Shown: piece by piece, positions 1,354 through 63,500 of the stretch
Layout of the letters: every line of letters starts with the position of its first letter
Numbering within the stretch: position 1 is the stretch's first letter
Source of the DNA: Octopus vulgaris
Lineage: Eukaryota
Direction: 5' to 3'
DNA: 64,000 nt
Assembly: GCA_951406725.2 (NCBI GenBank)
Contig: OX597815.1
Span: forward strand, 106,082,001-106,146,000
Notes under the pieces: generated by a model
Told to the model about the DNA's origin: nothing
Seen by the model: only the letters and a program-made list of their open reading frames with translations
Databases searched by the model: none
Made by a program: the position numbers and the translations under genes

Positions 1354-4300
1354 ACATATATATATGTACATATATGCCTGTCTCCCTAAATGACCTTATT
1401 CTGTCTCCCTAAATGACTTATCATCATCAATTAGCATCCATTCTCCATGCTGTCATGAGTTGGGTGGTTTGACAGGAGCCATAGAACTGCACCAGGCTCC
1501 ATTGTCCGCTTTGGCATGGTTTCTACAGCTGGATGCCCTTCCTAAAGCCAACAGAGTGTGTTGATACTTTTTAGGTGGCATCAGCTCTGGTGCTCTTTAG
1601 ATGGCATCAGAACGTGCTTTTTTTTTTGTGGCACAAACACCAGTGGGGTCACCAAATACTTGCAATACAAAGCATTCTCAGCTGTAGAGGGAGCTGGCTT
1701 TTTGTGGAGTGCTGATTGAGAGGTTAAAGAATAATAAAGTGATAGAGATAGGAGTCTTACTATAGAGGTAATGCTTGACTATCCCGGTAGGAAAAGAAAG
1801 AAGAGAGATAGTTAGAGAGAAATAGATGATGGTGGAGATGTTTCAGGACATACCTACAGTGGAGGTGAATATAAGTGGTACAGAGGGATAGAGGGAAATG
1901 TTACATAAGAGTGTAAGGGGAGATGTTTAAAGATAGGGAAGAGGTGACTGTAGCAAGATGATGGTGAAATTGGATTAGCTGTGGTAGATATGTGAGAGCA
2001 TGGTGACTATGTGTGGTTAGGAACGTGAGACTGTAGGGGCATGCAGCAGGTGGTGATCATTTGGGGAAAATGAGTTGTGGGGGAGTTTTGATGGGGTGGA
2101 GGCATAAAGTACATCCATATATGACCTCAATTTTACTTAGTTTGACATGTTTTCTGAAGCACAGCAAATCACCAGTTGTCTCAGTCCCTTGTCATTTCCT
2201 CAAAAGCTTTGTACCTCATAACTCCCCATTGGCTAGTCCTTTTATTCATTTGTATATCATTTCATTTTATTCTATCTTATTTATTCATTCTTGTCATATT
2301 CATTTTATTTTTCAATTTTTTTTATTAATCCTATCCATCTTATTTTAATATATAAGTCACTTTACTTGAAAATGCCCTCTCACCCAAATGTAACCCATCA
2401 TAATTTACCTGTGAAGTTGACCACACCCCTGTCTTCTCTTCCTACATCCATCCCCTCTCTAGCAACCCTTTAATACTACTTCTCTAGCATACTATCCTAT
2501 TATAAATCTTCCCATACAGCCTTATCACTTCCCACATCTTCCCCACTTTACTTTTGCCCATGATATATGTGACTTATTCATCCATAAATCTTTTGTTGCC
2601 ACTCCCTGCACCTAACCTTATCCTTTCCTTACTTTCACCTCTACTACCTTCTCTTCCTCTCCAACAACACCATCTTCACTGGTTCCAATTATCATTCCTT
2701 TTTAGTAACTGACAGCTTCTCCTGTATTTCCATCCATCATATCTACTGCCTAAAATATTCCCTTTGTAATTCTCTATACATTGGTCAGATTGTATGACTC
2801 CTATTCAAGCACTTCTCTGAACTCCTTCAAGATATTCATCTCAGCAATAATTCTCCCATCTTATACCATTTCTAATTTAGGAATCATTCAACCTGGCATT
2901 TTTCTATATTCAACTTAACTCTGTACAATGGTTTTGGGATTCTCATGTCTGGCATAAACAAAAATTCATTCTCTCTTTCCCAACTACACTCTCTCTTGGC
3001 ACCAGTTGCCAAACTCATTTTCTTCAATACCCCATCACTACCTCACACGTATACATATATACACCTACATGCAACACTCAAGTGCCCACATACATCTTAT
3101 ACAATAAAACACACACACACAAACACAGTCTCTCTTTCTTTCTCTCTCTCTCTCTCTCTCTTCACACACACACATACATACACATTTTAGTATTTATAAA
3201 TTTAGCATGAATAAAATTGTCTTATACAAAGTTAACCCAAAGAGGAGTATCTGCTCTCATCTCGTTCTCAATTTTTGATTCACTGTCCTATCAGTTTACA
3301 TTTACATTTGCATATTCACTCAGTTTAACATATATAAAACACAAATCCTTTATTCAACTAAAGATCAGACCATAGAACTTACTATATGCACATTGTTTCT
3401 TTATTCTTTTTATTATTTTAATTTTGTGGAGAAGGAAAATCCTCCAATGCCTAGGAATTCTCCAAAAGTAGCTGGAACTATTCAATGGTGTAAATTCACT
3501 CTGAAGAAAATCAAATACCCCATGGAAATTTTAATGGACATTTGTGTAGTACAACAATTACCACATTTCTCTAATTTTGTAAAGATTTATAATGAAACAA
3601 TCACAACTATTCAAGACTTTGAGAGGAAAACAATTGGTAGTTGGATGAAAAATTTGGTAAATGTTGTTGATGGACTCAGTGCTGCTCTTCTCACTTACCA
3701 TCTTGAATCCAAAGAACTCCACATTAACATTGATCCAAGGTATGGAACAGTTTTTTTCTGGTTTTAAACCATTAGTAAATGTTTACTTTTCAAAATATTG
3801 TATTATAGTCTGGACATATGGAAGAGAGCAAGTACTGGTAAAATCTATATACTGTTGATGTTCAGCTTGAACACCTGTAGAAACAATATGATTAAGGAGA
3901 ATGATGCAGGACATTGCTGTTCTAAGGGGAAAGGGAGGAGAGAAGTGTTTCTTGTGGGAATTTAGGGATGAGAAACTGAAATAAAGATAAGAAGAGAGCT
4001 TTGATGGGGGTGGTATGGAATTTTCTTATTCACAGAAGTATGAATCATTTGTAGAAATAAAGGTTATCCATTCAACTGGATTTTCCTTTTTTGGAAAGGT
4101 AGTCTATAATCATCATCATTTAACATCTGCTTTCCATGCTAGCATGGGTTGGACAGTTTGACTGAGAACTGGTGATCTGGGAGGCTCACCAGGCTCCAAT
4201 CTGGATGCCATTCCTAACACCAGCCACTCTGAGAGTGTAGTGGGTGCTTTTTACATGCCACTGACATGGGTGCCAGTCAGGCAACTCTGGCATTGGCCAC

Positions 4301-7300
4301 ATTCAAATGATACTTTTTACATGCTACTAACAGGGGTGCCGGTCAGGTGGCACTGGCATTAGCCACGCTCAGTTGGTGCTTTTTACATGCCACTGGCGTG
4401 GGTGCCAGTCAGGCAACACTGGCATCAGCCATGACTATGATCTCTCTTGGCTTGACAGGTCTTCTCAAGCACAGCATATCTCCAATGGTCTCGGTCACTT
4501 GTCATTGCCTCTGTGAGGCCCTACATTTGAAGATCATGCTTCACCACCTCATCCCATGTCTTCCTGAATCTCCTCTTCCACTGTTAAAGTCTAGCACCTC
4601 TTCACATAGCTGTCCTCATCTATACGCATCACACAACCATGCTAGCACAGTCGTCTCTCTTGCACACCACATCTGATGCTTATTATGTCCAACTTTTCTC
4701 TCAAGGTGCTTACACTCTGTTGTGTATGCACACTGACATTACACATCCAGCGGAGCATACTAGCTTTATTTCTTGCAAGCTTACGCAATCCTCAGCAGTC
4801 CCGGCCCATGTTTCTCTGCCATGTAGAATAGCTATTCGCACACGTGTCATACAGTCTACCTTTTACTCTGAGCGAGAGGCTCTTTGTCACCAGCAGAAGT
4901 AGGAGCTCCCTGAACTTTGCCCAGGCTATTTTTATTCTAGCAGCTACACTCTCAGAAAACCCACCCCAATGTCTGACTTGGTTATCTAGGTAATGGAAGC
5001 TATCAGCTACTTCTAGTTTTCCCCCTTGACATGTGATGGAATCTATTTTCTGTACATTTTTGGTGGTTATTGTACCTGTGCACCTTCCACACATAAAAAC
5101 ATTATTCCTTATTAAAACTTCCTTTGATATTGCTGCACCTCCTATGTGTCCACAGCTTACACTGGGTACATCTTATGGAATTCCTACTTATGCCTTTTCT
5201 ACAGATCAAGCAGGGCTATCTATCTGAAGGGATTTGTGATTTGTTCACCTTCCTGCTTACTAATACGTTGGTTTTTGCTAGGTTAACTCTAAGGTTCCTC
5301 AATTCTAGACCTTGCTTCCACACCTCTAGTTCTGGTAGTGATTCCAAAGAAATCTAACCTCTGTGATGCTATTTGGATAATGTTATAGATATGTAGTCAA
5401 CACATGAGATCATTTTAGATTATGAGGCTTAATAAAGTAATCCTAGTTGTTAATTGGTTAGTGAAATTAATGACTTTGGTAGAATAAAGTGCGACCAAAC
5501 CATGATGTTTGTAACAAAACAAAATAAGTTTTAAAGCAGGTGATGGAAAACTGATCATGAAACATTCATGAAATAATTGCTACGATTTCAATGATGAAAT
5601 TTATCTCTAATCAATGAAAAATATATATTGACAGGTTACTAATTGCTATTGAAGAGACAAAATCAATGGTTAAAATGGGAGTTCCAATACCAAAAAATGC
5701 TAAAGCAATTCTTCTGCAAGAGGACAAATTAAAGAATTATAAAATGCATTTGGAATTGTGTATTCACGAATTCGATGAAACAAAAGGCATTTTGCCTAAA
5801 ATTTGGCAACAGTTATTCAAAGAACATTATTGCCAAATGTCAAGAGAATTCCAGCCAGGACTTAGCTCTTTATCTTGGAATAGCTTGAATATTGGTATGC
5901 ATTTTTGAATATTATTATTGGTCTTTGTTTCGTTTTTGCTTTTGTATTTTGCTTTTTCTTTTGTTTTGTTTCATGACCACAAAAATATATTTCATTTCCA
6001 ATTTAAATTTGCCATCATCAAAATTTTCTGGTTTCCACAAGATGTGTGTGTGTGTGTGTGTAGGGATACATGACTAAGGAAATATATTAAAAAAATCTTT
6101 AACAATAAAAGATTAAACTCAATCTCTTTAATATAATTTTGTGTGTGTATATAATTTATGTCTCTGTTTTACTGAAGTTAAGAACCTTCTTTCTCCTAGC
6201 TAGTGTAATCATCATCATCATTTTACATCCGTTGTCCATGCTGGCATGGGTTGGGCAGTTTGACCAGGGCTGGTAAGCTGGGTGGCTGCACCAGACTCCA
6301 GTCTGATTTGGCATGGTTTTCTACAGTTGGATGCCCTTCCTAATGCCAACCACTCCAAGAGTGTAATGGGTACCATTTGCATGACACCAATATCTGCTGT
6401 GACTGTGATTTTGCTCGATTTGATGGATCTTCTCAAGCACAACATAATGCCAAAGGTCTCGGTCATTGCCTCCATAAGGCCCAACAATGTTTTACATTAA
6501 TTGCATTCCTTTTCTCTCGCTAGCACTATATGACATAAGTGTTTAGTTAAATCTAAATACTAGCTGTGAACAATGAAGAAATGCACATATCCTTTTTCCT
6601 CAGTTTTTGAAACATTTTTTCTTTTCTCTGTTCGTCTCCTTCAGATGCATTTTTGTGCACAATACGATCTGCTGGCTACAAACTTAGGGACATGACACAT
6701 GGTGTCCATAAAATTATTTATAACCAAATTGATGAAGTTATTGAGCAGATAGAAGACATGTCTTTATTCTCAATGGATGAGTGTACTCTCAAGCATCAAG
6801 TAAGTCAACATAAATTATATTGGATCCCCCCAAAAATAATAGTTATTGGTTTTATAATCTTAATATTTTGGTGTTAAAAACTTGTATGTCAGTGTTATAA
6901 TCCATATTACTGGAGTTATAGTCCTGGTAGTTAGGGTCTATTTGTTTGTGATTATGATAATAGTTCAGGATTTATTTTAATTTTTTTGTCACAATTGTGA
7001 ACAATAGCATCATTACTTCCAGGTTTCAAAGTAGTGCACTGTATTTTTAGTTATGAAAAGGATAGGAGGAACATCTGTAAATTAAGGTAAAAATTTCAAA
7101 AGACTTGATTTATAAAATACCCAGCAAGTTATATATATATTCTGAGACTCCCTTCAGTCACTACACAGACCAAGGGATTGCACCTAGAAAGTTACCCTCC
7201 CAGGCACAAGTCTGGGCAAGGTTGTTTATAGAAGACCAGCAGTCACCCATGCATACCAGCCTCCCCTCTCCATGCCACCAGTGTTATCCAAGGGAAAGGC

Positions 7301-19400: not shown

Positions 19401-22400
19401 GGTTTCTGCTAATTGTGTGAAAAGATGACGCAATGTCTGTACATTTTTTTAGGCTTTCTTGAACCAAAGAGTAGGTATAACTGAATATGATTTATCTTTT
19501 TACTTTTCTTTATTAGTTTGGTCTAGAGGAAGTAGTTGTGGCTGGCCATGATCTTTATAGACCCTCCAGTGCCAGTAAAAATGATATAATTGATATTCCT
19601 GTCAAACAGTTGCTAGTCAACAGCTAAAGGAAAAAGATATGCAAGGATTGAATTTCAGATGGCCAATATTTTTCAGAAGAAGGATCATACATAGTGATTA
19701 GGGGAAGGCCTGGGTGGATACATGATATGGGTGACAAGGAGAGAAGAGATGAGCAAGTCAGAAGTGCCTGAGTAGAGGTGGCATAAAACCAGTCAGCTCT
19801 GAGGAACAGAGATTACTGTTGTAACAGAGAGGGAAGCCAAAACATCTAGGGTCAGTGTTTAATACATTAAATTCTTATATATTGCAACAGAAGAAACTAT
19901 GAAGTGACTGTATTTATGGGAAGAAAATACTATATTTGTGGTAAGTGGGTGGCAGAAGATGAGGTTGATGCATCAATAATGTGCACTATTGGTAGTGAAA
20001 GATTTCTTATCAGTTGGATTAATTTGTTTTTGTGTGTGTTAGATGCATATAAAAGTAATCCAATGTAAAGCAAAGTTATATTTTACATGAGTCGGTATCT
20101 GGTTGTGTACCTTGTGTTAATCCTATACTGACTAAAATATATAGGAGTTTTTGTGAGCACCTACAAGTAGCACCTATAAGTACCTACAAGTAGCTACAGA
20201 TAAGCTGACCTAAATAATATATAAAGAGCTCTTATCAGTAGCTTCTATCCCTTTCAGGAATCCCTTTAATTGATATATTTGATGACTACTTCCATGATAA
20301 CATTGTGAAGAATGAAAGAATCAATGATGTCTTTAAAGCAATTGAAAAGTCACTGTCAGGTAAGATGAATAGTTTTATCCCCTTAGTAAAAGTTTCTTGT
20401 GTTGTGAGTTTCTCACTTGAATATGATAAAATAATGTATTCCAAGCCTTATGAAATATATTTGAAATTATAACCACAAGAGAGGACATGCAGGTTCAACA
20501 ATTGAATGATTATGCTTTTAGTTTTTGAGTATTATTTGGTGATGTGTGTGCTTTATTCAAAGAGTAAATCATCATAGAAAAACCAGTGAAGTTGTAGTGA
20601 TGGATAAGATAGAGAGAGAGAGTGTGTATGATATATTAGTAATTATAATCTGATGGTATGTGAAAACTGCTTGTGCATGAGGAAAAGTTGTCTAATATAC
20701 CATAGAGCATTGCTTAAGAATCTATTTCTAATCATCATCATCATCGTTGTTTAACACCAGCTTTCCATGCTAGCATAAGTTGGACGGTTTGACTGAGGAC
20801 TGATGAGCCAGAAGGCTGCACCAGGCTTCAATCTGATCTGGCAAAGTTTCAACAGCTGGATGCTCTTCCTAATGCCAACCACTCCGAGAGTGTAGTGGGT
20901 GCTTTTATGTGCCACCAGCACAAGGGCCAGTCAGACAGTTCTGGCAACGACCACACTCAAAAGGTGTTTTTTATGTGCATCCTGCATGGGAGCCAGTCCA
21001 GCAGCACTGGCAACAACCATGCTCGAATATTGTTTTTCACATGTCACCAGCACATGTGCCAGTAAGTCAACGCTGGCAACGATCACACTCCAATGGTGCT
21101 TTTTATGTGCCACCGGAATGGGAGCTAATCCGTGACCCTGGCAACGATCACACTCAGATGGTGCTTTTAATGTTCCACTGGCACGAGTGCCAATTGGGCA
21201 ATATTGTCATCGGCCATGTCAGCAATTTTGATTTTTTGATTTCACTTGCCTCAACAAGTCTTCACAAGCAAAGTTTATTGTTCAATGAATGAGGGGTACT
21301 CATAAGTGGGCTGGTTACACCCACTAGCATAGGCCATGGGTTATGGTCTCACTTGGCTTGGCAAGTCTGGTCTTCTCAAGCACAGCATATCTTCAAAGGT
21401 CTCGGTCACTAGTCATTGACTCGGTAAGGCCCATTGTTCAAAGGTCGTGCTTCATCTCATCCCAGGTCTTCCTGGGGCTACCTCTTCCACACATTCCCTC
21501 AGCTGCTAGGGTGTGACACTTTTTCACCCAGCTGTCCTCATTCATTCGCAATGCATGACCATACCAGCGCAGTTATCTCTCTTGTTCACCACATTTGATG
21601 CTTCTTAAATCCAACTTTTCTCTCAAGACACTTACACTCTGTCATGTATACACACTGACACTACACATCCAGTAGAGCATACTGGCTTCATTCCTTGCAA
21701 GCTTACACATGTCCTCAGCAATCACGGCCCATGTCTCACTGCATGTAGCATGGCTGTTCATACACATATGCCATACAGTCTTCCTTTTACTCTGAGCGAG
21801 GGGCTCTTTGTCACCAGTAGAGGTAGGAGCTCTCTGAAATTTGCCCATGCTATTCTTAATCTAGCAGCTACACTTTCAGAGCATCCACCCCTGCTACTGA
21901 CTTGGTCCCCTAGGTAACGGAAGCTATCAACTACTTCTAGTTTTTCTCCCTGGAGTGTGACAGAAGCTGTTCTCTGCACATTTTCAGTGCTTATAGTACC
22001 TGAGCATTTGCCACATACAAAAACGATCTTCCCAGTTAGCCTTCCTTTGATATTGCTACACCTCTTATGTGTCCATAGCTTACATCTTATGGGTACATCT
22101 TATGGAGTTCCTACCTATGCCCTTTCTACAAAATGAGCAGAGCCATCTACCTGAAGGGATTTGTGGTTTGTCTGCCTTCCTATTTATTAAAACTTTGGTT
22201 TTAGCTAGGTTGACTCTTAGGCCCTTCGATTCTAATCCTTGCTTCCACAACTGAAACTTTTCTTCTAGTTCTGATAGTGACTCAGCAATTAGAGCAAGGT
22301 CATCAGCATAGAGGAGCTCCCAGGGGCATTCTGTCTTGAATTCCTCAGTTATTGCCTGGAGGACTATGTTGAATAAGACGGGACTGAAGACTGACCCTTG

Positions 22401-27843: not shown

Positions 27844-30800
27844 AATAATAATAATGATAATAATAATAATAATAATAATAAGCTGACAGTTCAGTGGCCG
27901 AAAGCCATAGAAACACTAATATGGGCCAGTTTAGCAACGGGGAAAAATAACTCTCAAAGACTGGAACGTCTACAATACCTCGTGAGTATTTGAAATTCTC
28001 TTCAAAGTGGGTTAAGAAATTTACAAATTTACATATCTGCAGCTTTCAAACATACATCCAATCGGCTTTAAAAACTTTAATACCCACAACTGCCTCTGTA
28101 AGCACCCTTTTTTTTTTTTTTTTTTTTTTTTCTCTCTAAAAACATCACGCTTTTCTTTTTGTGGACTTGCAAAACCCTAAAACTTTCTATGAAAATCTGA
28201 CTTTTCTTTGCTTCCTCCCAGAATATTCAAATATAAATGTAAACATATACTTTTTATTGCAAAAACACACCTGTTCTTCTAACTGGACATACAAACATCT
28301 CTAGAGGGGTCAACTTCAACCTCCACAATATTACCTTGCACGAAATATACAAACACTTTTTATTGCAATAACACAAACGCACATGGAAAAAATAATGATG
28401 CTAAGATTCTCTCTGGTCGAACACAACTACTCTATTCACAAATAATACAGAACAGCCCTTCAAAATAAGTTAAGAAAATTTACAAATTTACATATCTACA
28501 GTTTTCAATCATACATTCGACCAGCTTTAAAAACTTTGATACCCACAATTGCCTCTGTAAACATCCTTTTTTTTTTTTCTTCTCTCTAAAAACATCACGC
28601 TTTTCTTTTTGTGGACTTGCAAAACCCTAAAACTTTCTATGAAAATCTGACTTTTCTTTGCTTCCTCCCTGAATATTCAAATATAAATGTAAACATATAC
28701 TTTTTATTGTAAAAACACACCTGTTCTTCTAACTGGACATACAAACATCTCTAGAAAAGTCAACTTCAACCTCCACAATATTACCTTACACGAAATATAC
28801 AAACACTTTTTATTGCAATAACACAAACGCACATGGAAAAAAAAAACATGATGATGCTAAGATTCTCTCTGGTCAAACACAACTTCTCTATTCACAAACA
28901 ATACAGAACATCCCTTCCTTAATTTTTCTTAAGCCTAATAGTAGTAAACATCTGAACTTTTTTTGACCGATAGGACCCCACCTAAAAATAAAAAAAATTA
29001 AAATATCACTGATGGTGATGATGATAATAATGATAGTAATAGTGCTGATAATCTATCTATCTATCTACACACACACACACACACTCAAAGAGTTCAACCA
29101 ACACAAACCTCACCTCCGCTCTATTGTTAACCAAATATGAAAGTATTATTTGACAGGCAGGAACTCTGGCATTGAAGACAGTCAGCCAGCTAACCACCAA
29201 GCCAGCCAACGAGACAGACGGACATTACTGTGATGGTGATAATGATAAAAAAACAAAAATAACAATAATAAGATACTGCTGTGACTACACATAAAACAAT
29301 ATCATTGATGATGATGGTGGTGATGGTGATGGTGATGATGATGATAACGATGATGGTAATGGTGGTGATAATGGTGATAGTAATGGTGATGATAACAATA
29401 ATAAGCCGACTACAGCTGCTATAATGGTACGATTATAATTGTAACGGCAATGATGGCCGTCTCCCCACGAGCCAATCAAAGCTAAAAAATGATAACATTA
29501 TCGTAGCACCAAAATGTTTTTGGAAACTAAAAGGAAAACTAAATCAGTATACCAAATCGCTTGTCCTATGGTTAATCTGGAAGCGCGTCCCCCAGGGAAG
29601 AGTCAGCCTGGGATCGAAAAGTCATCAACTGGCACAAACTCTTCTCCGAATACGGACATGGATGGTCACTTGAACGGGAAATCCCCCAACTCGAGCCCTC
29701 CAAGTTCACCACCACAACCACCACAGAAAGAAAAATGTAAGCGGAACAAATGGACCCGAGAAGAGTATAAAGAAGTAATATACGCTTATTACTATGCATT
29801 AGGTAGGCCATCTCAAGAGAGACACACCGCAAACTCTTACAGTATATGGAGAACACGGAATCAAGACAGTAGGCCCTATTTGGACGAGAACAAATTGGCA
29901 AATGTGAGGAGGGATATCCTTAGAAATAACAGACTCACAGACAGTGAAATAAGCGCGATCAAGCACGCAACGGAAAATGACATAAATATAAGACACAAAG
30001 GAAATGAAGAATCAGATGAACAGTATAGCCCGCCACGAGGCTTAATTGAAAGACTGCCATCTGACCAAAGTACGCAAAGGCCTGAAGATACAAGAAATTC
30101 TATTGCACCTGTTAAAGATAGCCAGGAAAACGAAAAAACAGCAGTAACTGAAGATCTCGCATTTGCTGAAGAACACAGAGAGTCTATGGCAGAAATGAGG
30201 CAGAAAATCCTGAATACGCTTGAAGTTGTAAGACATACAAGTATGAATGATAGAGAACCACTTCATAAACTCTCAAATACAAACCAAAATAAAAAACAAA
30301 TCCAAATTGGCAACTATGTAACAAATGAAATAATACGAGAATTAAAACCTGATTTTACTGAGTTAAATGAAATTATTTACGCTTCTGCTAGGGCAATTGA
30401 AACCAGCTGTATGCCCCCGAAAAAACAAAGAAAACCAAACCTGGAGAAGTAAAATTGAAAAAGAGATTGAATTTATGAGAGGGGAAATATCAATATTAAA
30501 TGAACTAATATGTGGAAATGATGTAAGATCCAGAACAGGAAGAAAGATGAAGAGAAAATTTGGATCCTCACCAAGAGAAGAACTGATATCAATAAAAGAA
30601 ACGCTGAAACAAAAAGTCCAAGCAAAAGCCCAAAGAATATGAAGATTTGAGAAGAGAAACAAGTTTTACAAGCAAAATAAGCTGTTCACATCCAATGCCA
30701 AAAAATTCTACAGAGAAATAGGGAAGGAGAAAGTAACCGTTAAAGACCCCCCTCCCATGGAAGAAGTTCAAAACTTTTGGAAAAGGATTTGGAGTGACAA

Positions 30801-33392
30801 GAAGACGTACAACATAAATGCAGACTGGATTATACAAACTGAAGGATCCTACCAAAATTTACAACAACAAGCATGGGAAGACATCACAATAGCAGACCTA
30901 AGAAAGGCACTCACGAAGGCCCATAATTGGAAATCCCCCGGTAAAGATAGGGTGCCGAATTTCTGGCTCGCATCGCTCCCATGCGCACACGGTAAGCTAG
31001 TTCAGCTGCTCAATGGAATTATGAGAGACCCAAAGAAAACACCAGAATGGTTAGCAAGTGGCATTACTTACCTACTCCCAAAGAATAACGAAACCAACCT
31101 TCCAAAAAACTATCGGCCTATAACCTGTCTATCCACCACGTATAAAATCCTAACATCTATCCTGGCGGAGAAAGCATATGCATTCATGGAGAAGAACGAT
31201 ATTTTCCCCATCGAACAAAAAGGGTGCCGCCGAGGCTCTTACGGATGCAAAGATCAACTGCTAATCAATCGTATGATCCTTGAGAACTGTCACAACAAGT
31301 GCAGAAATCTCAGCACCGCATGGATTGACTATAAAAAGGCCTTCGACAGTATACCGCATCCATGGATCTTGAGAACGCTGGACATCTTCAAAATTTCCCC
31401 TGTGATTTCAAACTTCCTGAAGCACAATATGTCGTTGTGGAATACGAATCTCCAATTATACCACTCTAATGGAGTACTTGCCTCAGAAAATATAAACATC
31501 AACTGTGGAATTTTTCAAGGTGACTCACTTTCACCTTTAATATTCTGCATAGCCCTAATACCCCTTACAAGTGAATTAAACAGAACAGGGTATGGGTATA
31601 AAATTGCCAATAAAAAAACAAGCCATCTATTTTATATGGATGACTTAAAACTCTATGGTAAAGACAATAATGAACTTGAAGGCCTATTGCGCACTGTGAA
31701 AGCATTCAGCGATGACATCGGGATGGAGTTTGGACTTGAGAAGTGTGCCAAGGCCACTTTCCAGAAAGGGAAAGTGAAGACCACAAATTCAGTCATGTTA
31801 GATGTTGACACAGTCATAAGAGAGCTTGAGCAAGAACAAACATACAAATATTTAGGGATAAATGAAGGCTCTGGTATTCATTATGCAAGCATGAAAGAGA
31901 AGATCAGGAAGGAATATTATAGGAGAGTTCGTGCAGTCCTGAGATCTGAACTAAATGCACGTAACAAGGTGTTAGCTATAAATTCCTTAGCAGTTCCAGT
32001 TGTTACTTATACCTACAATGTATTGAACTGGAATATGAGTGAAGTAAAGAATATAGATAGGAAAATACGCAAGCTGCTGAGTTGTAATAGGATGCACCAC
32101 CCAAAGGCAGACGTAGATCGCCTTTACCTTCCCAGAGCCCAAGGAGGTCGAGGCCTGATCCAATTTGAACTAGCTTACAAAACAACCACAATTGGACTGG
32201 CCAAATATCTCGAAATAACGAATGACTGGATGCTAAAGCTCGTGGAAAATCACGAGAGACGAAAGAAGCTTCATTCTATCCTAAAGGAAAGCAAAAAATT
32301 TGCTATTGATCTCGTGCAGGATACCTAAACTGAACAACCCGAGGGAAGTACGGCAACTATTGTTGCAAAGAAGGTAAAAATAATGGCAACGAAAAAAGCG
32401 CACGAGCAATTGGCTGATAGGTGGGAGGAGAAACCTCTGCACGGCAAATATGTGGCCCGCAGCAAACAAGCTGATGTTGACCAGAAGCAAACCCATCAGT
32501 GGCTACGGAGCTCAGGGCTAAAAGCAGAGAGCGAAGGTTTCATCCTGGCTGCTCAAGATCAAAGCCTATTAACCCGGAACTACCAGGCCAATGTGATGAA
32601 AAATGGAGCAGACCCAAAATGCCGATTCTGCAACGACATGATTGAAACAGTGGACCACCTAATCTCTGGATGTAAAGTCTTAGCACCAGTGGAGTATAAA
32701 TTAAGACATGACAGAGTTGGCCAATATCTACACTGGCTAATAAGTCGCCATTACAATATCAAAACTGCCGACAAGTGGTATAATCACCACCCTGAGGCTG
32801 TAACTGAAGGAGAAAATGTAACCATTCTGTGGGACTTTCCAGTACATACAGACCGAACCATCAAGGCCAATAAACCAGATATTGTTGTGAAAGACCAAAA
32901 CAATAAAGTTTGCTTATTGATCGACATGAGCATCCCCTGTGATCATAATATCTCAGAGAAAGAATTTGACAAGCTCAGAAAATATAAAGACCTACTCATT
33001 GAAATTGAGAAAATGTGGCATCTCAAGGCGGTTACAATACCAGTGATCGTAGGAGCACTAGGAATGATCAAGAAGGGAACCGAAAATTATATGAGAATGA
33101 TCCCTGGCTTACCATCCCTGCAAGAAGTGCAAAAGATTGTCTTAACTGGTACATCACACGTATTGAGAAGAACATTGTCGATGTGAGAACTGTTGCTGCT
33201 CATGTATTTTAATTTAAGTTTTAAAAAATAAATAAATAAAAAAAAAATTTTTTTTTAAATGAACGAACTATTGAGTTTGGTTTAATGGCCTACCAATGTA
33301 TACTATGAGTTTCTTTGCCCTAGGAGTCGGGAAGACACTCGGCAAGAAATGGAAGCAAATTTGAAAGAAGGAAAAAAAAAGTAATGATAATA

Positions 33393-45500: not shown

Positions 45501-48500
45501 TACAAGTCAACGTCACTAACCCTGGTGCCACTGAGTACACTCTGTAAAATAATTTGCAACACACAGTAAAGTGAACCTTATAGTTTGGTTGAGGACATAA
45601 CATCTTTAATACTAGTGCCATGATAAAATGTACCAAGTGCACTGTGTAAATTTGTGTCTTTTTTAGGAAGGGCATCCTGTCCTGGAAAGCAAGCCAAAAC
45701 TGCAAGGTGTTAGATGTGTAGGAAAGCAGTATCTTTGAATAAGAACTGACTCATATCATGATAACCTTTTCAACACATACCAGCATAGAAAACATGCATA
45801 AAATCATGATGTTATACAAACACACACATATAGATGCAAGTATGGCTGTATGGATAAGAAGTTTGCTTCACACCCATATGGATTTAGATCCAGTCCCACT
45901 GTGTAACACTTTGGGCAAGCGTCTTTTGCTATAGTCCCAGGCCAATTAGAACTATGTTATTGGATTTGGTAGATGGAAATCGAAAGAAGCTTATTGTGTG
46001 TGTGTTTAAATATGCATGAATTTCATAAAGGTTGTTTAACACACTGTTTCACTATCCACAATATAATATTGTATAAGACCAAATGTGCAGGCTTATCCTA
46101 CAAATATAACAATTATTAATGAAGTTGTGTTGTTGAAGATGGTAAAATATATTTTTTGATTCAGATCTTTATTTAGATATGTCCATGAAATAGAAACTGA
46201 AGTACTTGAAAAAAGAAGAGAAATTTTATCAGAATCTGCAGCTTCAGATATACAATTTGACCAAAATACAGAAATTTTTACAACTGTAAGAAAATATCAC
46301 CCTTTATCTTATTCGTGAAAGCATACTGTCTCCACATGTTCTAAGAGCTGAGTTAAAGGGTTAACAACAAGAAGAGCATCCAACTGTATTACTCTGCCTC
46401 AGGAAACTTACACAGAAAACTTGCCCAGCATGGGGATACTGGATATAAAATTATGATAGTATTTTAATAAGAACTTAATTATATAATTTAATTTAACTTG
46501 ACTACATATTCTAAAATTTAAATTTTTAAATTTATACATTTCATAATGTAGCTAAGTTTTATTCTTTACATGTATAAACTGATGTCTTTTTCACTCACCA
46601 AAAATTCAATATTCAGACATCTTTCATTGCCCAGTTCCTCAGTATGACCTGTGACATTATAAATGCCTATGTGTGTGTGTATAGTCAAATCAAATAATTG
46701 AGCATTAAAAATAACAATAACAAAACAACAAGAGGACCTGTACATGGAATGTATTAATTCAATGCTTGGTAAAACGAGAGGGCGTTTGACATTTTGAGCA
46801 TGGCTCTTAGTCAGAAAGGAAAAGAGTTGGACAGTTTGACAGGAATTGACAAAGCCAAGGGCTGCACCAGGTTCCATAGTCTGTTTTTGCTTTGTACTAG
46901 GTGCTTTTATATCATCATCACCATCATTTAGCATCCATTGTCTATGCTGGCATGAATTGGATGGTTTGACTAGGGCTGGTGAACTGAGGGGCTGCACCAG
47001 ACTCCAGTCTGATTTGACATGGTTTCTATGACTGAATGTCTTTCCTAATGCCAACCACTTTGAGAGTATAATGGGTGCTTTTATGTGCCACCAGCACAGG
47101 TGCCAGTCACGTGGCACCAGTATCTGCCATGACTACAATTTCACTTGGCTTGATGGGACTTCTTCACAAACACAGCATATTACCAAAGGCCTTGGTCATT
47201 TGTCATTGCCTCCTTAGACCCAGTGCTCGGAAGGTGCTTTTTACGTCACCTGCATTGGCCACTTTGCCTCTTTGAGGCCCAATGCTCAGAAGGTGCTTTT
47301 CATATGCCACTGGCATGAGTGCCAGTTATGTGACACTAACAATGGCCACAACTGTGATTTCACTTGGTTTGATGGGTCTTTTCCAACATGGCATATAGAC
47401 AAAGGTCTCAGTCACTAGTCATTGCCTCCATGAGACCCAACATTCAAAGATCATGCTTCACTACCTTGTCCCATGTCTTCCTGGGTCTCCCTCTTCCACA
47501 GCTTCCTTCTACATATATTAATTATCATTTTGATATTCACTGTTTCATACTTGCATGAGTTGGACAGGATTTATTGAAGCAGCTCTTCTACAGCCTACTG
47601 CTCTTCTTATCACCAACTCTCACTTGTTTCCATGCAAGGTAATATTTCCTCATGACTAAACAAGTTTATGCAGTATGACTCTGCTTGTATCACAGTGACA
47701 CCTATTTATAATTATCACTAGATGTCACGACAAAGATGGACACACACACACATACACATCTGTATACTGACTTCTTTCAGTGTCCCTCAACCAAATTCAC
47801 TTACAAGGTTTTGGTTGGCCCAAGGTTATAGTAGAAAACACTTGTCTAAGGTCCATGCTATGAGACTGAACCTACAAACATGAGCTTTACTCATAAGTTT
47901 TACTTAATTCTTAATTTGCTCATAGGTCTTGTTGGTTATAAATTTAGTCTTTAGAATAATCATCATTCTCATTATTGCCAAATTATCAGAGTATTGGGAA
48001 AATACCTTGCAATATTTGCTCTAACTTTTTACTTTCCATTCTTTTGAGGTTGATAAAATATACCAGTCAAAGTATTTGTGGTCGATATAATTAGCTAATA
48101 TCCTCCTCCTTTTCCTGAAATTAGTCTTATGCCAAAGTTTGAAATCATTTTTTATTTTTTGAAGCCTGAATTAAGTCAAGAAATCAAACTGAGAGAAACT
48201 GCTGAAATACAAATGATAGCTGTAAAAAGTGTTGATGGGGAAAAATTATTATTAAATAAAAAGGTACTTATTTATATTTTTATATGTATACATACACACA
48301 CACACATACACACCACTCACACAGAAACACATATGCATACACACATGTATGTATGCATTTTTCATTGTTTAACTTTAACTGAACAGACTTGAGATCAAAG
48401 CATTCCATCCATGACTATCCTATCTTATTTTCAGGCAATGAATAGGTTATTCAGTGTGTATTCCCTTTTTTAAAATAAAGTTTGTTTGAGAACAATTTAT

Positions 48501-51500: not shown

Positions 51501-54500
51501 TTAATAAATAGATGAGGGGTAGATAGAGCTCCTTTGTTTACCCAAGCCATGGTGAAGGCAGTCTATCTAGGAGAAAGTAACTCTGAATTCAAATACTTCA
51601 CTGCTGTAGTTAGCCTTTGTTTGGGCAAAGACTGGGAGAAAGACACTCTGATATAAAACCTGCAACTGCAAATGCACCCAATGATGTTAACTTGCTTTCT
51701 TTTTGGGGATCATGCTTTGTAGTTTAGAGAGTGGGAATGGTTGCTGTGCAAAACTTTTCCTCACTTTAAAAAGTGTCAAGCACAGGTATTGCTGGAGAGG
51801 AAAAGAAATGGACATCTTGTATGTACATGGCTGGCCGAAGCTTAGAAAGCCACATCTAAACAATGAAAGTTTATATTGATAGTGAATCAAATGGCAAAAA
51901 GGGCTCTGGAACATTTTGTTCTGTGGTCTGGCCCAGCAGGTGTCCTAGGGCACTACAGCCTGGATCTGGTCCAGTAAATTCGAGTAAATTCAGCTGTGAG
52001 TAAATTCAAGTTAAGATGCAAGCCTATGAATATAAGATGTTGGAATGTTCGAATGTTATTAGACAATGATTGTCTGAAATCTTGTCCAATGAGAAGATCC
52101 ACACTTGTTGCAAAAGAATTAAGCAATAGGATATGAATGTTGTAGCGTTAGCCAAAACAAGAATTCATGGAAAGGGGAATTTCATAGAGAAATTTGCTTG
52201 GTATCATTTATTTTGGAGCGGTAGAGAGGAGACCTATAAAGGAGAATCAGGAGTGGGATTTGCTATCAAAACCACTCTGGCTTCAAAACTTGAGGAACTA
52301 CCATGTGGTCATTCGGATCATTTAATGTCTTTAAGACTTCCATTAAGAAATGGTTGCTATGCAACACTCATAAGTGCATATGCTCCAACTTTGAATTCAT
52401 CAGAGGATGATAAACTTGCCTTCTATCTATCATTGCAGAGATTATACGCCATATCCCCCATGATGACAAAGTTGTCATTTTGGGTGATTTCAATGCTCGC
52501 ATTGGTAGATTGGGAGACCTAGGAAAGCATGGGGTTGGGAGTTCCAACAGTAATGGTTTGCTACTGTTACAAATGTGCATAGAGATGGAATTGTGTGTCA
52601 TGAATACAATGTTTCAACTAATGAATAAGTATAAAACAACATGGATGTACCCTGGTTCTAAGAAATGGCATCTTATAGATTACATCCTCACCAGGAAACG
52701 AGATACTATGGACTTTGTTGTTGTAAGAGTGATGCATGGTGCAGAGTGCTGGACTGATCATTGGCTTTTGCGTGCCAAGGTGAATTTTGTTGTCAAGCCT
52801 AAGGTTAGAGCAAATAATGACAAATTACCTAAACGGATTGATGTCAATAAACTGAAGATTCTGTCAGTATGCAGTGAGTTTGTGAGTGAGATAAATAAGT
52901 TGTCCTGTGATGGAAGCTGGAAGTCATTCAAAGAAAGAGTGTACAAGATTTGTAATAACATTCTTGGCTTTGTTGTAAAAAAACACCAAGATTGGTTTGA
53001 TGATAAAGATGAAGAAGTTAATCTTATCTTAGAGGAAAAGCGAAAAGCATTTAACATATTGCAAAATGTTGACATGTCAACAAACAGAACAGGGGCTACA
53101 TATTTCAAGGCAGTAAAAGCAACAGTGCAGAGGAAACTACGAATGATTCCGGAAAATTAGTGGAGTGATAGATGTGATGAAATCCAAGAAGCTTCAAATG
53201 TTAACAATTCCAAACTTTTTTACTCTCTCTTGAAAAAAGTTTATTGACCAGTTTCATCAAAGGTTTTGCCACTTCGGAGCAAGGATGGCACAGAATTATT
53301 AACCAATCCTAAAGATATTGTTGTGAGATGGAAAGAACATTTTGATGAGTTGCTCAATAGATCCACTGAAGTTGATCTCTCTTTTTATGATAATATACCC
53401 AAGAGACCAATAAAACATCTTATAGCAGAAGTTCCAAACCTGGCTGAAATAAAAGCAGCAATCAGAAATTTGAACAATGGAAAGGCCCCTGGTATGGATG
53501 GACTTGGTGCAGAGATATATAAATACAGTGGTGATCATCTTTGTGTAATGTTGATGGATGTGATTCAGATGGTTTGGCAAAGTGAAGAGGTTCTCCGGAT
53601 TGGCGTGATGCAACTATGGAGGTACTATATAATCTAAAGATGGAAAGGATGTCTGTGATAATTATCGTGGAATCTGTCTGTTAGCTGTTGCTGGAAAGGT
53701 CCTCTGTAGGGTAATGTTGGATAGATTGCTTCTGCACATTGCTGATGATGTTCTACCAGAATCGCAATATGGGTTTAGGGATAGTAGGAGTATTATGGAT
53801 ATGATATTTTTGGCTAGACAGTTGCAAGAGAAGTGCATCGAACAGGATATGGACTTATACCAGGTTTTCATTGACCTAACAAAAGCGTTTGATTATATCA
53901 ACAGAATAGCACTTTGGGAGATCCTGAAAAAGCTAGGATGCCTTGAAAAATTTGTGAGAATGCTTAGACAATTTCATGACAAGATGGAAGTGAGAGTTAA
54001 TGTTGGAGGTACCTTATCAGATCCAATTTCGTAGAAAATGGTGTAAAGCAAGGTGATATTCCTGCTCGTACACTTTTTGCTATATATTTGCAATAGTCTT
54101 TCAAATAGCTTTTGAAGATTGCCCTGAAGGGGTCAATAAGATATAGGACAACAGGGAAACTGTTCAATCTCAAAAGACTCTATCAGTAATATATACCGAG
54201 CCATATGTTTATCTGTCTATTTATCCATATATTTGTCTATCTTTGTCTAAATATTTTCTGTGTATAGGTTCCTGTATGCCATAGCGTGGAATGGTGGCTT
54301 AATGAATTGAAGCATACTATTCATGATACAATTGGTAAGATGAGTCTTAATGCCATCCAAGAAATTACTCAAGCTACAAATCTTGAAGAATTCATTGCTA
54401 AGGTAAATGGTTTTAAATAGGTGTGTGTGTGTGTGTGTATAGTAACATAGTAGTTTGAAACCTTGCTACTGAGATAAATATGAGCACTAAATGTATATAC

Positions 54501-57500: not shown

Positions 57501-60500
57501 AGGTTCATCAACCCTTAGCTCATTGCCACCTTTGTGGTACAATATGAGCAGATAGTAAGGGCAAAGGTAATATAGAGTGACATGAAGAATCAGTATGATC
57601 TTATAAATGCTAATAACCCCTCAAAACTCAGGGCCTTCAAGTATTGTGCCCCATTGTGAGTGCAGTAACAAAAGCAGTAAGATTAGCAACACAGAGCAGA
57701 AAGCTCAGTTGTTAAATATGCAGCAGTTAGAACCTGAGAAAGTAGAAAAGTAGTCGAACCAGCTACAACAACCCCAGACCCTATGTTGTTGTTTTCACAG
57801 AATCCCCAGTCCAAACTTAGGAAATAGTGGAGATCACCTTGTTTTAGTTCCAAAAAGTTGAAGAGAAAAAAACCCTTCTACCAATAGATCATCTCAATTA
57901 CTTGCATTGATGGGAAGCAGATGTAGACTGGAGACAAATGGCAGACTTACAGCAGAGAAAAAGAAAAAAAGAGAAGGCTAAGGAGTGAAATCAAAAGGTG
58001 TATAAAATATGAAACTGTTGCGCTGTTATGTTTTTTATCTAAATGGAATACATCCAGTTGCAAATCAGAAAATTTCAGTTTCAATGACTTGAAATACAGT
58101 ATATTGGAATCTACAAAAATTTAGTACTAATATACTTAGTGCAGTGAACCAAGAAATGTTCATTAATAAAAGTTACACTCTTAGCAAGAAGAATGAATCA
58201 TTAGCTAAATTATTAATTTTGGTCAGGAAAAACAAAGGACAAAATACGGAAATTCTAATAAAACTGCTACAAGGGTAAAGGAGAAGCTCCAGGAAGCAAC
58301 TAAGTATCAAACTTATGGCCCAAATTATGAAATTATAAAGAAAATTAGCAGAGATGAAACGCAGTTTGGGTTTGTGTGAGGCTAGGGTACAACTGACATC
58401 TTTCTAGTGGTGATGATAAGGAGGAATCTGTCTTCTAACCAAAAGATCAACAGTTCACATTGCTACAGCATCAATGAGTTTTGTCTTATGCAAAAACATT
58501 TAACACTTAATTATTCAATGTACATATATATTAATAAGTGGCATGATGGAATGAAGTTCACTGCTGTACACAAGCTGGAACTCTTTATGATTGATTTTTT
58601 TTTTTTTTTTTTCTTTTTTTGCTTCCCATACTAATTTTGAATTCCTCCCTGGGAGGAAACCTGGGCTAGGCTAACATTTTATCCAGGTATTGAAACAACA
58701 GAAGTGGTTAAAAATATATACTGAACACTATAGCCCCAAAATATGGAATCATCACCATTAGCTTACATGAAATCTTCAGCTACCTTTGATTTTTCAAGGA
58801 ATCTAAACCAAAACTTTATTTTTTTTTTATATATGGACTTTGAATATTGTTTTCTAAATTTCTGATAGTACATTATCATTTACTACAAATATACTTGTGG
58901 AACAATATCAGTGTATTATAAATACCATCTCAAGAACTACCACCAACACCACTGGTTTATAGCTACAGTCTGTTAAATCCATTAATAATATTTTCAAAAA
59001 TTAAAACACTAAAATTACTTTATTTTCTACCTATATTGTCTTCTACTTGGTTCTACTTAATTTACTTCTTATCTACTTTTACATCTTACCTACTTTACCC
59101 TGTACCTTCCTGAACTTCAGCCTATACTACCTTGTTCTTTCAGCAAACTCTCTATCTTCGAGATACTCTTTATACAATATGTAGGAAAAAGGTAAAACAT
59201 TGCACAGACTTTGACTGGAGACGATACCTCAAGTGTTACTTGGTATCAGACAATGGTAAGTATGCCATTGTATTTGCAATAGGGTGATATGAATGTAAGT
59301 GTTCAGAATTTAGAAAAGACGAAGAATGAGGAGAAGGCTCAGAAAGAGAGCAAAAGAAAATGAGAAATTAAACTAGAGAGAGAGAGGAAAAGAGAAAGGC
59401 TAACAACAAAATCCACACTACTATGGAGATGGAGAGTGCATGAAGAGGAGAGAGTGAGAGAGAGAGGACAAGAGTAGTTCCACACAAGATTCACCATGAT
59501 CCTCTAGTATCTCATCTGAGTCCCAGCATGCTGAGACCTGATGTCACTATTTCATCCCATATCTTCCTTTGTCTTCCACTTCCACAGCTAATCCTCACAC
59601 AACAGTTTATCACCCAAAACACATCCTTCATACTCCTTACATGTCCTCACAGTACAGTCACCATCTCCTATATACATCAGATGATGTCTTTAATGTGCAA
59701 TTCACTTACATTCTGGAGGCTAATTAACAATACATTCCCCGTAGATCATGTTTACCTCATTTCTGTCCAGTCATTGTGCATGCTTTCTCTTCAATGTTCC
59801 TGTTTCACTACCATATAGTATCATACATTTAACTACAATGCAAAATTGATGCTGTCAACATTCCACCTAAACAGTTGCAACAACGCAGCTGGAAGTGGGA
59901 AAACCTAGGGAATTCCTGAGAGTTGACATTCTGAGGGAAAATGACTGAGAATAGTGGTTAGTGAGGAGCTTGAGGAGTAAAGGACATAACATAAGTGATA
60001 ATAGTTGTAGTAGGGATGATGAAAGGAGCACAACAGAACAAGGAAAAGGAAATAGAAGTGCAATTAGGTCTTACCTGACCGGGGATGAAGTCGGATGGCC
60101 TTCAGCCAACTTGCTAACGTCTTGTCGTCTTCGTGTCTTCCTGGGGTCTGTCCCAACTCGTCGATGCCGCACGTGCGTTCTGTCTGTCACTTCCGCTTCC
60201 GCCAGTGCATGCGCCCTGCCAGACCTGCAAGCCCACTTCCGCTCCCCCCCCATTCTGTCACACTCCTTCATCATCACACCACACGCCCCCCCTGATCTAT
60301 AGATCACTGAACCGGCTTCCTCACTCGCTCCCGCACCTGAAACTGGTTTCATAATCAGCCAACCAGGGAGGAGGGTGCCGCTCCCTCTTTGGTCGCAGCG
60401 CGACCCTAGGACTTGTTTCTGGTGTGTTGCTGTCGACCTCGTCATCCTGTCGGTTGTTTTCGTCTTGCCCACTGTTGCTTGTCCCATCCTCTGGGGCATG

Positions 60501-63500
60501 GACAATCCTCCGTATGTCCAAACGTGGCGTGGCATACCATTGATCGAGATGTTATTCTTTGAATTTATGGAGGTTATTGTCCCCTTTCCCCATTGCGATG
60601 TACACCGTGCGTTTGGGGGTTTTACCCAGACTTCCTCCCCGACCTGCACGAAGGCGTGCTCTTCCTCTGCCCCGGGTCGCATTGATGTAGTACACGGATG
60701 CCTCCACTCGTACCTGAATATTGCCCTGTGTGGCACCGATTCCTCAGCCTGTCCGGATCGGGGAGACAAGTTGTACCAAAAAACTGCTTCAAGCGGCGAA
60801 ATGTGCCCTCTTTCCGCTATGGCCTTGACTGTCCGATGGTGCCTCTCCACGATCCCGTTACCGCCCGGCCTATACGCTGCTCTGAACAAGCGTCGCACGT
60901 TCCACCGATCAAGCATAACCCTCAATGCTTCCGAACGAAACGCCGCCCCGTTGTCCATCAGTAGTTCTTCCACGGGACCTCTCTCTAAAAATATCCCGTT
61001 CAGGATCTGCACGATCTCGTCAGCAATGCCCGATCTCAACTCGCTCCAAATGGCCAGCCGGCCTGGCCCACAGTCGACCATGGAGAGGTACATTCGCTGA
61101 CGGTAGTGTGTCACATCCACAGCTAGCCTTTTCCAGTTCTGCTCCACGGAAAGGCTTCCCTGTTCATGCCCACACGGAGCAAGGTCGATGGACTGACACC
61201 TGTCGCAGCTCCCGACCTGCTTCCGGACGCTTCTCCTGGTCATGTCAGCATCAATCTTTTTTGCCAGATACAGGGTCCTTTCCACACCCAGGTGATGCAT
61301 AGCGTGCAGTTTCTTCAGTTCAGAGTCATCCAACCGACACGCCGCAGCTATCCCTTTCCGAGCCTCCTCCGGTTCTTCCAACCACGCCCTTTTCACCCTG
61401 GTCAGTACGTCCGCCTTGTTTTTCTCCGAAGGCACGAAGACCACGTTCAGCTTCAGTCCGAATTCGGCGATCAATTCACCTAGAACTCCTAGACGGCGCT
61501 TCACTAACATCTCCGCAGCACCTTTCGTCCGCACTCTCCTGTCACCGGTGATCACCGATCCTACCCAGCCAAGCACAGTGGCCTCCGTCCGCATTTCAAT
61601 CGTGCGCAGCCCCCATTTCAAGGCCAAGTTCACCCCTTTCAGCAGTGCGTCTAATTCGGCGACATTGATGTGGTTGAAATCATCTGCTTTCCGAAGCCAG
61701 GCCGCGTCCTCCACCGCAGTGCCTTCGATTGCCAACACCACCCCTATCGCTATACTGCTAGCATCACACCAGACGGTCCCGCATTTCGTCCTGGGCATGT
61801 ACCAGTTCCCCCTGACCGGGTCTTCCGCTCTTGTCCTCTCTAGGATCTCCTGCATCATTGCCACCGTCCCTTCTCCCACCTTGTCGCCCCACCTCTCTCC
61901 TTCCGCTCGTCTCTTGGTGTAACTACACGCCGTGCGCAGCCATCCAGTGATCGGGTAGTGACCGACCAACTTCCCACACACCGAGAACAGCTCTCTCCTG
62001 CTGACGCTGGAACTCAGCTCTGGGATTTCATTTCCTCTCCGGAACACCAATTCACCAGATCTATCTCTTCGCAGCTTCAGCCCCAGCACGGCTCCCCCTT
62101 CAATCGACTCCGGTGGCTTAGCAATCAGTCCGAACTTCTCCAGATGTCTCACTACCTCGTCGGCTGGCACTACAGTTTCGTCCACCAAAATGTCGTCAAT
62201 GTAGGAGCTGGTGGCCTTTCTAATCTTGCCGTCTTTCCCTAGGACGGACCTAAGCACTGCCGCCACGATCTTCGGAGTGGAATTTCAGCCCGAAACCCAG
62301 CCTGGTTAGACAGTACGTCTGGCCCTTGTACCGCACCAGCTGATATCGCCATAGTTTGTCGCTCACATGGAGCTGCAAGTATGCCGATCTCAAGTCGACA
62401 ATCGTCGCTGCCTCAGTCGACTGTCTCCACTTACGTAATGCCTCACCACAAACGTCTGTCGCCTCACCTCACCAGTCGTTGTAGGTGAATCCCTACATCA
62501 TCGGGGAACCCATTCACGAACGCCAGTCGGGCTGCTCTCTCCAGTCCTTCTCCGGCAAACCCGGCCAGAGTCGCTAGCCTTCTAGCTTCCGATGCAAAAT
62601 CATCCACCTGGCCTCCCGTCCACCTGATTGCACCCAGCTTAGCGAAAGCTGTGTACTCGCATTCCGTGTATGCGTCACACAAGCGCCGCTCTATATTCTC
62701 ATCGCAGAGCCGTTCTTCTTCATCCATCTCTAGGTAAAGCGACAACGCACTCCCTTCCAAATACAGCACCATAAGACTCGCCACGTCGCTTATGCCCTGC
62801 AGTCTCGCCACCAGCCTGATTTTCTGAATCCAGGCCACTACATCGCCTTCGCCGTTAAAAGGTCTGACGACGTCACTGGCAATCCTAATTTTTGCAGACA
62901 TCGTGTTGAAAAAAAATGTGAACGCTGACGAACTGCCGAAATAGCTTGTAGTAGGGATGATGAAAGGAGCACAACAGAACAAGGAAAAGGAAATAGAAGT
63001 GCAATTAGGTCCTACCTGACCGGGGATGAAGTCGGATGGCCTTCAGCCAACTTGCTAACGTCTTGTCGTCTTCGTGTCTTCCTGGGGTCTGTCCCAACTC
63101 GTCGATGCCGCACGTGCGTTCTGTCTGTCACTTCCGCTTCTGCCGGCGCATGCGCCCTGCCAGACCTGCAAGCCCACTTCCGCTCCCCCCCATTCCGTCA
63201 CACTCCTTCATCAACACACCACAATAGTAGAAGAGACAAGTGTTTAGGTGGAGATGGCACTCGACCAACCAATTCTGAAGAGCAGAAACCATTATTGCAG
63301 TGATACAAAAACAAAGAGGAGTTAGTGTGTCTATATGCCAGTCAGTCAAATATCCTAAATTTGGATGTGATTTAGAATGTCTGTATGTATATCAGCACCA
63401 CTGCTCCAGATGCAGTACTTCATGTGAGTCTTATTTGAACTTTGTAGAGGGTTAGCAGTTGTTAGTGGTTGAGACAAAGAGAACCAACCCTTGAGATGCT

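Follow-up and report, generated by a model that had tools for sequence, protein, structure and literature searches.

The 64,000-nucleotide (nt) stretch of the Octopus vulgaris genome analysed here (contig OX597815.1, forward-strand positions 106,082,001 to 106,146,000; hereafter the window) carries on its minus strand a long terminal repeat (LTR) retrotransposon (63223..60006), whose primer-binding site (PBS) is the subject of this work. The element is a young, internally deleted copy. Its two LTRs are identical at 271 of 277 aligned bases, and full-length copies in the host genome measure about 4.2-4.3 kb. Direct TG...CA LTRs, a target duplication, a polypurine tract and a gag-pol region with protease (PR), reverse transcriptase (RT), RNase H (RH) and integrase (IN), observed across the window element and its relatives and host copies, identify it as an LTR retrotransposon.

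The 12-mer AGCTATTTCGGC abuts the 5' LTR, and no TGG is present. This 12-mer, found once in the window (0.008 expected), is a 12/12 complement of nt 1-12 of the host tRNA-Phe(GAA). A tRNA-Phe start pattern had 86 matches in the host genome, and ARAGORN called a tRNA-Phe(GAA) starting exactly at the matched base in 10/10 loci examined. The initial annotation had proposed that a 12-mer without TGG follows the 5' LTR directly and that it complements tRNA-Phe nt 1-12; the first point was borne out at 62946..62935, and the second by host tRNA-Phe genes that start as predicted. About 40 tRNA-Phe starts lie in a tandem array with a 200-base period (G000:C18:30148723-30157146).

In the window element and two full-length copies, no complement to mature tRNA-Phe was longer than this same 12-mer, and the best CCA-anchored complement in the three elements tested was 6 nt long and lay within coding sequence. 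Pairing stops before nt 13, where C13 faces the last LTR base, A, for tRNA-Phe as well as for the tRNA-Lys and tRNA-Met cases described below. We also considered the PBS as a copy of the tRNA 3' acceptor strand and rejected this, as its first 5 bases match the complement of nt 8-12, not nt 61-65; the last 7 PBS bases equal tRNA nt 66-72 because of acceptor-stem pairing only. That the site pairs with tRNA nt 1-12 is strongly supported, and we hold this conclusion with high confidence.

Table 1. Features of the retrotransposon, in window coordinates.
Feature	Position	Strand	Remark
Target site duplication ACTAT, 5 bp, upstream copy	63224..63228	-	same 5 bp flanks both ends
5' LTR, 277 nt, TG...CA (TGTGG...CTACA)	62947..63223	-	
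PBS 12-mer AGCTATTTCGGC	62935..62946	-	zero gap after LTR; exact complement of tRNA-Phe(GAA) nt 1-12
gag 5' part, ATG at 62901, truncated by internal deletion	62473..62901	-	
Junction of ~1050-nt internal deletion (3' gag, protease, RT start lost)	62470..62473	-	compared with full-length copies
Open pol remnant, 737 aa stop to stop: RT palm end, DUF7047, RNase H, DDE integrase	60071..62284	-	
Polypurine tract AGATCAGGGGGGGCG, G-rich, adjoins 3' LTR	60284..60298	-	
3' LTR, 278 nt, TG...CA	60006..60283	-	
Target site duplication ACTAT, 5 bp, downstream copy	60001..60005	-	

Conservation of the site in host copies and relatives

A first host set held 30 junction loci, one of which was the window's own 3' LTR, leaving 29. 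The 12-mer followed ...ACA in 29/29 (26 exact, 3 with one change); 13/29 had an unrelated LTR with the 12-mer kept, and at least two unrelated LTR types occur. For a second set, 40 further copies were selected by DUF7047 out of 150 listed, with about 60-97% protein identity to the query, and the 12-mer was found in 35 of them (30 exact, 3 with one change, 2 with two). The check proposed in the initial annotation, that the 12-mer is kept while LTRs diverge, thus came out in its favour. As a control, host Gypsy elements were treated with the same boundary script; 20 were fetched, and 17/17 resolved elements had TGG 0-2 nt past the LTR. Some host copies of the lineage have LTRs that are 100% identical, and therefore transposed recently with this PBS.

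Several features of the host copies were observed alongside. The LTR types of loci L018-L030 and L001-L016 are unrelated, yet the internal regions at the gag start are 96-97% identical, which suggests LTR exchange by recombination. Four copies on three contigs (L052, L053, L054, L058) share identical flanks and therefore represent one insertion duplicated along with its surroundings. A single PBS change in L004/L043 (G000:C13:22641921) makes the site an exact complement of variant host tRNA-Phe-like gene starts; the change may stem from a copied primer or represent a chance transition. The U5 end (window 63025-62947, minus strand) contains, 45-75 nt upstream of where the LTR ends, a splice-donor-like AG|GTA(A/G)G with a pyrimidine tract behind it. 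This donor-like motif was present in 58/62 host copies across LTR types and in 3/39 relatives (2.2 expected), and no spliced joint at it was found in the contigs of four RNA runs.

Outside the host genome, 727 of 7999 scored sequences were homologues of the pol frame at E<=1e-20, and clustering at 50% gave at least 656 representatives with E<=1e-30. Argonauta, the nearest named match, is one of the named hosts, as are Aplysia, Petrolisthes, Oratosquilla, Nymphon, Macrosteles, Hydra and Sycon, and the lineage as a whole extends from sponges and cnidarians to arthropods, molluscs and environmental eukaryotes. A metagenome scan yielded 76 loci, and the junction was located in 47; the remaining 29 were mostly fragments without the 5' region, and three were weak matches. 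The gag N-terminus provided a denominator of 42 loci, 4 of which were excluded for having less than 45 nt upstream, and the 12-mer motif preceded gag in 38/38 qualifying metagenomic loci. No TGG was found within 5 nt of the LTR in any of the 47 relatives, which agrees with the expectation that the family carries no normal TGG-type PBS. Viral contigs contained no lineage members, and the eukaryote-type Phe pattern found nothing there either.

After removal of 5 near-duplicates, 42 junctions with a median protein identity of 48% were compared column by column. Ten of the 12 PBS columns held 1.4-2.0 bits, and the variable columns held 1.1 bits opposite tRNA nt 6 and 0.05 bits opposite nt 5. Columns outside the 12-mer held at most 0.41 bits, placing the edges of conservation at tRNA nt 1 and nt 12. 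The start codon often lies 0-4 nt past the PBS in the relatives.

When six tRNA starts were compared, the junctions of 36/47 relatives were exact complements of tRNA gene starts. Host tRNA-Phe was the exact partner of 12/47, and other tRNA-Phe(GAA) starts, GCCGTGA or GCCGCGA, were exact partners of 20/47. Three of the 47 matched tRNA-Lys exactly, L112 the host tRNA-Lys(CUU) and L078 and L109 a variant host tRNA-Lys gene. One junction (L116) was exact for an intron-containing host tRNA-Met(CAU), with the base opposite nt 12 altered along with nt 4-7. PBS types appeared to cluster in a FastTree tree, with the Lys type in two places. The host elongator-type tRNA-Met genes (L143, L147, L148) have introns of about 21 nt and were missed by ARAGORN run without intron search.

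The GCCGTGA and GCCGCGA starts were absent from the host, and none of 19 host matches to the TCGC, TCAC and TCCC variants was a tRNA. Combined with a Phe-type D arm, the two starts were called Phe at 53/54 loci, mostly archaeal. Prokaryote-type tRNAs with these starts were mostly Thr and some Phe, and the starts are therefore not unique to Phe. A few such tRNA-Phe genes inside bacterial bins look eukaryotic, with T-run terminators, a tRNA-Ile(AAT) neighbour or a tandem array (L282-L286, L290, L292, L311, L315); they are probably contamination.

These results bear on three further proposals of the initial annotation. A primer from the 5' end of tRNA-Phe was supported insofar as the site is conserved and matched to tRNA; it did not hold as a Phe-only system, since relatives switch to tRNA-Lys and tRNA-Met. 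Covariation of the site with tRNA 5' ends was found for the 36 exact junctions and not for the other 11, and lies within one genome for Phe only. The suggested mimicry of the tRNA D arm just downstream found no backing: the words are present in the window and not conserved, with CAGTT in 5/26 and AGCG in 4/26 host copies, and CAGTT in 2/47 and AGCGTT in 0/47 relatives.

Self-priming of the kind used by Tf1 likewise gives a zero-gap, TGG-less site of 11-12 nt (PMC4600332, PMC6317226; here and below, papers are drawn on for those parts of them that were accessible), and the likeness to tRNA could be due to chance. Both ideas are largely refuted, and we consider them highly improbable. Paired with the element's own LTR, the site reached -9 to -13 kcal/mol at best, compared with -18.7 for a perfect partner, and 95% of shuffles were beaten in only 2/38 relatives, as chance alone would give. 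In 26 host LTRs no more than 5 exact complementary bases were found, in keeping with the earlier observation that the LTR holds no complement of the PBS. Moreover, the site stays constant while LTRs change and tracks tRNA starts.

How the minus strand might be primed

A 12-nt 5' tRNA fragment, cut free by the element's own RNase H at the edge of the duplex, may serve as the minus-strand primer, and on the sequences we think this just about probable. The element RNA, helped by nucleocapsid, would invade the acceptor stem and the 5' strand of the D stem, and a cut between tRNA nt 12 and 13 would then leave a 3'-OH opposite the last LTR base. Since the minus strand must start opposite the last LTR base, the reactive OH would lie on nt 12. 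Plus-strand synthesis would reach the 5' end of the primer after 12 nt exactly and run off there, and this would account for pairing that goes no further than tRNA nt 1. The geometry of the cut would be that of Tf1, which uses its own RNA 5' end in cis, and a 1996 study by Levin is said to concern the role of the Tf1 RNase H in making the primer. In self-priming of Tf1 and Tj1, the 5'-terminal bases of the RNA are paired to a zero-gap site and then cut (PMC4600332).

The RT, RNase H and integrase carboxylates, four of them in RNase H, were invariant in 30/30 proteins. At tRNA position 9, each of the 42 sites calls for an A. Among cytosolic tRNAs, 1-methylguanosine at position 9 (m1G9) is common and 1-methyladenosine (m1A9) is rare (PMC10275265), and tRNAs with A9 may be selected because their pairing face is free.

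Several points weigh against priming by such an RNase H-cut fragment. The 12-nt primer and its cut are predictions from sequence. RNase H is needed by every LTR element, and its intactness is therefore not specific to this step. Opening of the acceptor and D stems would cost about 14.7 kcal/mol against about 18.7 gained, as calculated for unmodified RNA and before tertiary structure; with so thin a margin, a chaperone such as the two-knuckle nucleocapsid is probably needed. Eleven of the 47 junctions, that of the sea-spider Nymphon element with its TCCC-type site among them, have no exact tRNA partner (one has a G-U pair, six have one mismatch and four have two). The tRNA starts matched to the relatives came from other genomes, either the window's host or stray contigs, and the patterns that retrieved them were derived from the PBS; the Phe match is the only one made within a single genome. 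The junctions of the relatives were themselves found by motif search, which makes the column conservation partly circular, and their LTR ends rest mostly on a preceding CA (38/42) and not on a second LTR, the contigs being mostly collapsed. Finally, 5/40 of the DUF7047-selected host copies lack the motif; four of these also lack the gag start, and the fifth (L261) has a site with 3 mismatches.

The same primer could be of host origin, a short 5' tRNA fragment released by D-arm cleavage being packaged, annealed and trimmed to nt 12. We regard this as rather unlikely, although it fits all the sequence evidence equally. Host RNases cut in or near the D-loop and yield fragments of 13-26 nt (PMC10275265), the half-tRNA of Ty5 has been attributed to host RNase P (PMC5371799), and a free 12-mer would bind at about -16 kcal/mol with no need to unfold the tRNA. 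However, a cut between nt 12 and 13 would fall within the D stem, and a 12-mer is shorter than the fragments described. One cut point would also have to serve the Phe, Lys and Met types over distant hosts, which is easier if the edge of the duplex sets it.

Alternatively, the tRNA might stay uncut, with the RT extending the 2'-OH of nt 12 into a branched RNA-DNA that is later resolved by RNase H or a debranching enzyme. This would explain equally well why no gap is left and why the end is fixed at nt 12, and the RT of the lineage is distant from other LTR RTs; all the same, we judge it unlikely. Retrons form branched RNA-DNA by 2'-OH priming with a fixed G at the branch, whereas the base at nt 12 varies here (U or G). 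The debranching enzyme Dbr1 matters in the Ty1 and Ty3 cycles, though for a different branch (PMC5399748), and no LTR element has been shown to prime in this way in the literature covered. In sequence, priming by a cut and priming through the 2'-OH would look alike.

It is also conceivable that the site serves to dock an entire tRNA, in packaging or as part of a structure, with the freed 3' CCA end priming elsewhere in a bipartite arrangement as in Ty3, or with some other primer in use. Invasion of nt 1-7 would indeed release the 3' strand of the tRNA, and Ty1 and Ty3 have bipartite sites (PMC5371799). Yet docking would not require a zero gap to the LTR end, no relative has TGG near the LTR, and a bipartite site with a CCA-end match was rejected, the longest CCA-anchored complement being the 6 nt in coding sequence reported above for three elements. 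We therefore hold docking to be very unlikely.

Taken together, we tentatively propose that the DUF7047 lineage, as a superfamily-level group, uses a fourth primer class, in which the first 12 nt of elongator tRNAs (Phe, Lys, Met) would be converted into a primer by the element's own RT through either a cut of the RNA duplex or 2'-OH branching; as a whole, this proposal seems to us possible and a little short of probable. It makes a precise biochemical prediction, namely a cut or branch at nt 12. It would unite the use of tRNA with the geometry of Tf1 and points to a path by which either might have given rise to the other. If it is true, very short 5' tRNA fragments gain a replicative role. 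The proposal also explains why these elements escape those PBS finders that search for TGG.

Lineage placement and known primer systems

The initial annotation had assigned the element to Gypsy. An LTR element with Gypsy-like architecture is what was found, and the Gypsy assignment itself is not established, as the RT is about 19% identical to host Gypsy RTs and is not nested among them. The domain order is PR-RT-RH-IN, which also occurs in BEL and Troyka and is therefore not diagnostic for Ty3/Gypsy. DUF7047, RVT_3 and rve were each detected in 30/30 aligned proteins. At E<=0.01, none of the 30 matched the Gypsy RNase H profiles PF17917/PF17919, a marker of our own choice, and none matched Peptidase_A17 (PF05380). 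The GPF/Y motif after the integrase core was present in 0/30; it is also missing in some Gypsy lineages (PMC12440569). Membership in DIRS, Ngaro or VIPER was rejected, since rve was found in 30/30 and an aspartyl protease is present, whereas those groups have a tyrosine recombinase in place of a DDE integrase and lack a protease. The RNase H motif may resemble that of DIRS.

Mean RT identity was 44% among members of the lineage; it fell to 19% both against host Gypsy and against two decayed BEL elements, and to 16% against a long interspersed nuclear element (LINE). The RT tree, with few references from one genome, grouped the seven host Gypsy RTs together (support 94/86) without the lineage; a position of the lineage as their sister was not rejected by the approximately unbiased test (p-AU 0.40). 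The lineage grouped weakly, on long branches, with the two decayed host BEL RTs (support 90 and 74 in two trees). The label 'Gypsy' is accordingly unproven, and we describe the element as belonging to a divergent DUF7047 lineage with Gypsy-like architecture. This lineage may need its own place in the classification. A structure model (predicted local distance difference test score, pLDDT, 76.7) places DUF7047 as three helices between the RT palm and the RNase H strands, and on this model DUF7047 is probably the RT thumb. In a longer sub-lineage (about 1390 aa; P0216, P0230, P0232, P0233, P0247; its named host is the sponge Sycon), RNase H and integrase lie further apart.

Other repeats were also observed in the window. 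The LINE that served as outgroup has RVT_1 and zf-RVT domains and is split into three frames (29496-33186, plus strand), and an endonuclease fragment of a second LINE lies at 52414-53160 (plus strand). Dispersed repeats that start at ATC runs with 66-nt tandem units behind occur on both strands (4106-5325, 20737-22252, 46914-47490 and others) and look like the abundant short interspersed nuclear element (SINE) of the host.

A literature search, which included the 12-mer as text and covered sources other than Repbase and subscription journals, found no PBS for a tRNA 5' end and no name for the lineage. The accessible parts of reports on mollusc clades (PMC6238403) and annelid clades (PMC8556966) do not mention PBS or tRNA, and the accessible part of the Troyka report does not mention the PBS of Troyka (PMC12440569). 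The supplements of these mollusc, annelid and Troyka papers may hold members of the lineage under the name Gypsy, and we consider it unlikely, though by no means negligible, that an earlier description exists somewhere.

Troyka resembles the present lineage in being an LTR lineage of aquatic animals with PR-RT-RH-IN order and no GPF/Y, outside Gypsy proper. Unlike it, Troyka has CG...CG ends, 3-bp duplications and a CX2CX8-10HX4C knuckle (PMC12440569). Membership in Troyka was rejected because the lineage has TG...CA termini and mostly 5-bp duplications, and its knuckles are CX2CX3/4HX4C.

Three primer types have been distinguished for LTR elements: the whole tRNA, the half-tRNA cut in the anticodon arm, and the self-primer (PMC6317226). 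A lineage-wide site for tRNA nt 1-12 would add a fourth. In canonical 3'-end priming, as in retroviruses, Ty1, Ty3 and the host Gypsy elements, a host tRNA likewise anneals just past the 5' LTR, but the site starts with TGG and the native CCA end is used; here TGG was found in 0/47 relatives and is absent from the host copies. Half-tRNA priming in Drosophila copia, Ty5, Osser, Bryco, Bianca and fungal Copia/Helenus also takes its primer from the 5' part of a host tRNA, and a single lineage may change from one tRNA type to another (PMC6317226, PMC10886601, PMC5371799). In plants it is confined to Copia (PMC6317226). These systems pair with the anticodon stem-loop and are cut in the anticodon arm, whereas the present lineage has a site for nt 1-12, a putative primer of about 12 nt and, compared with half-tRNA Copia, its integrase after RNase H. 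Tf1/Tf2, Tj1 and the Tf1/sushi chromoviruses are alike in having a PBS that pairs with the 5'-terminal segment of an RNA, which needs a cut to provide the 3'-OH, and in using no CCA-end primer (PMC4600332, PMC6317226). They differ in that their partner is their own transcript in cis, whereas the partner in the present lineage is the 5' end of a tRNA in trans, with no complement in the LTR.

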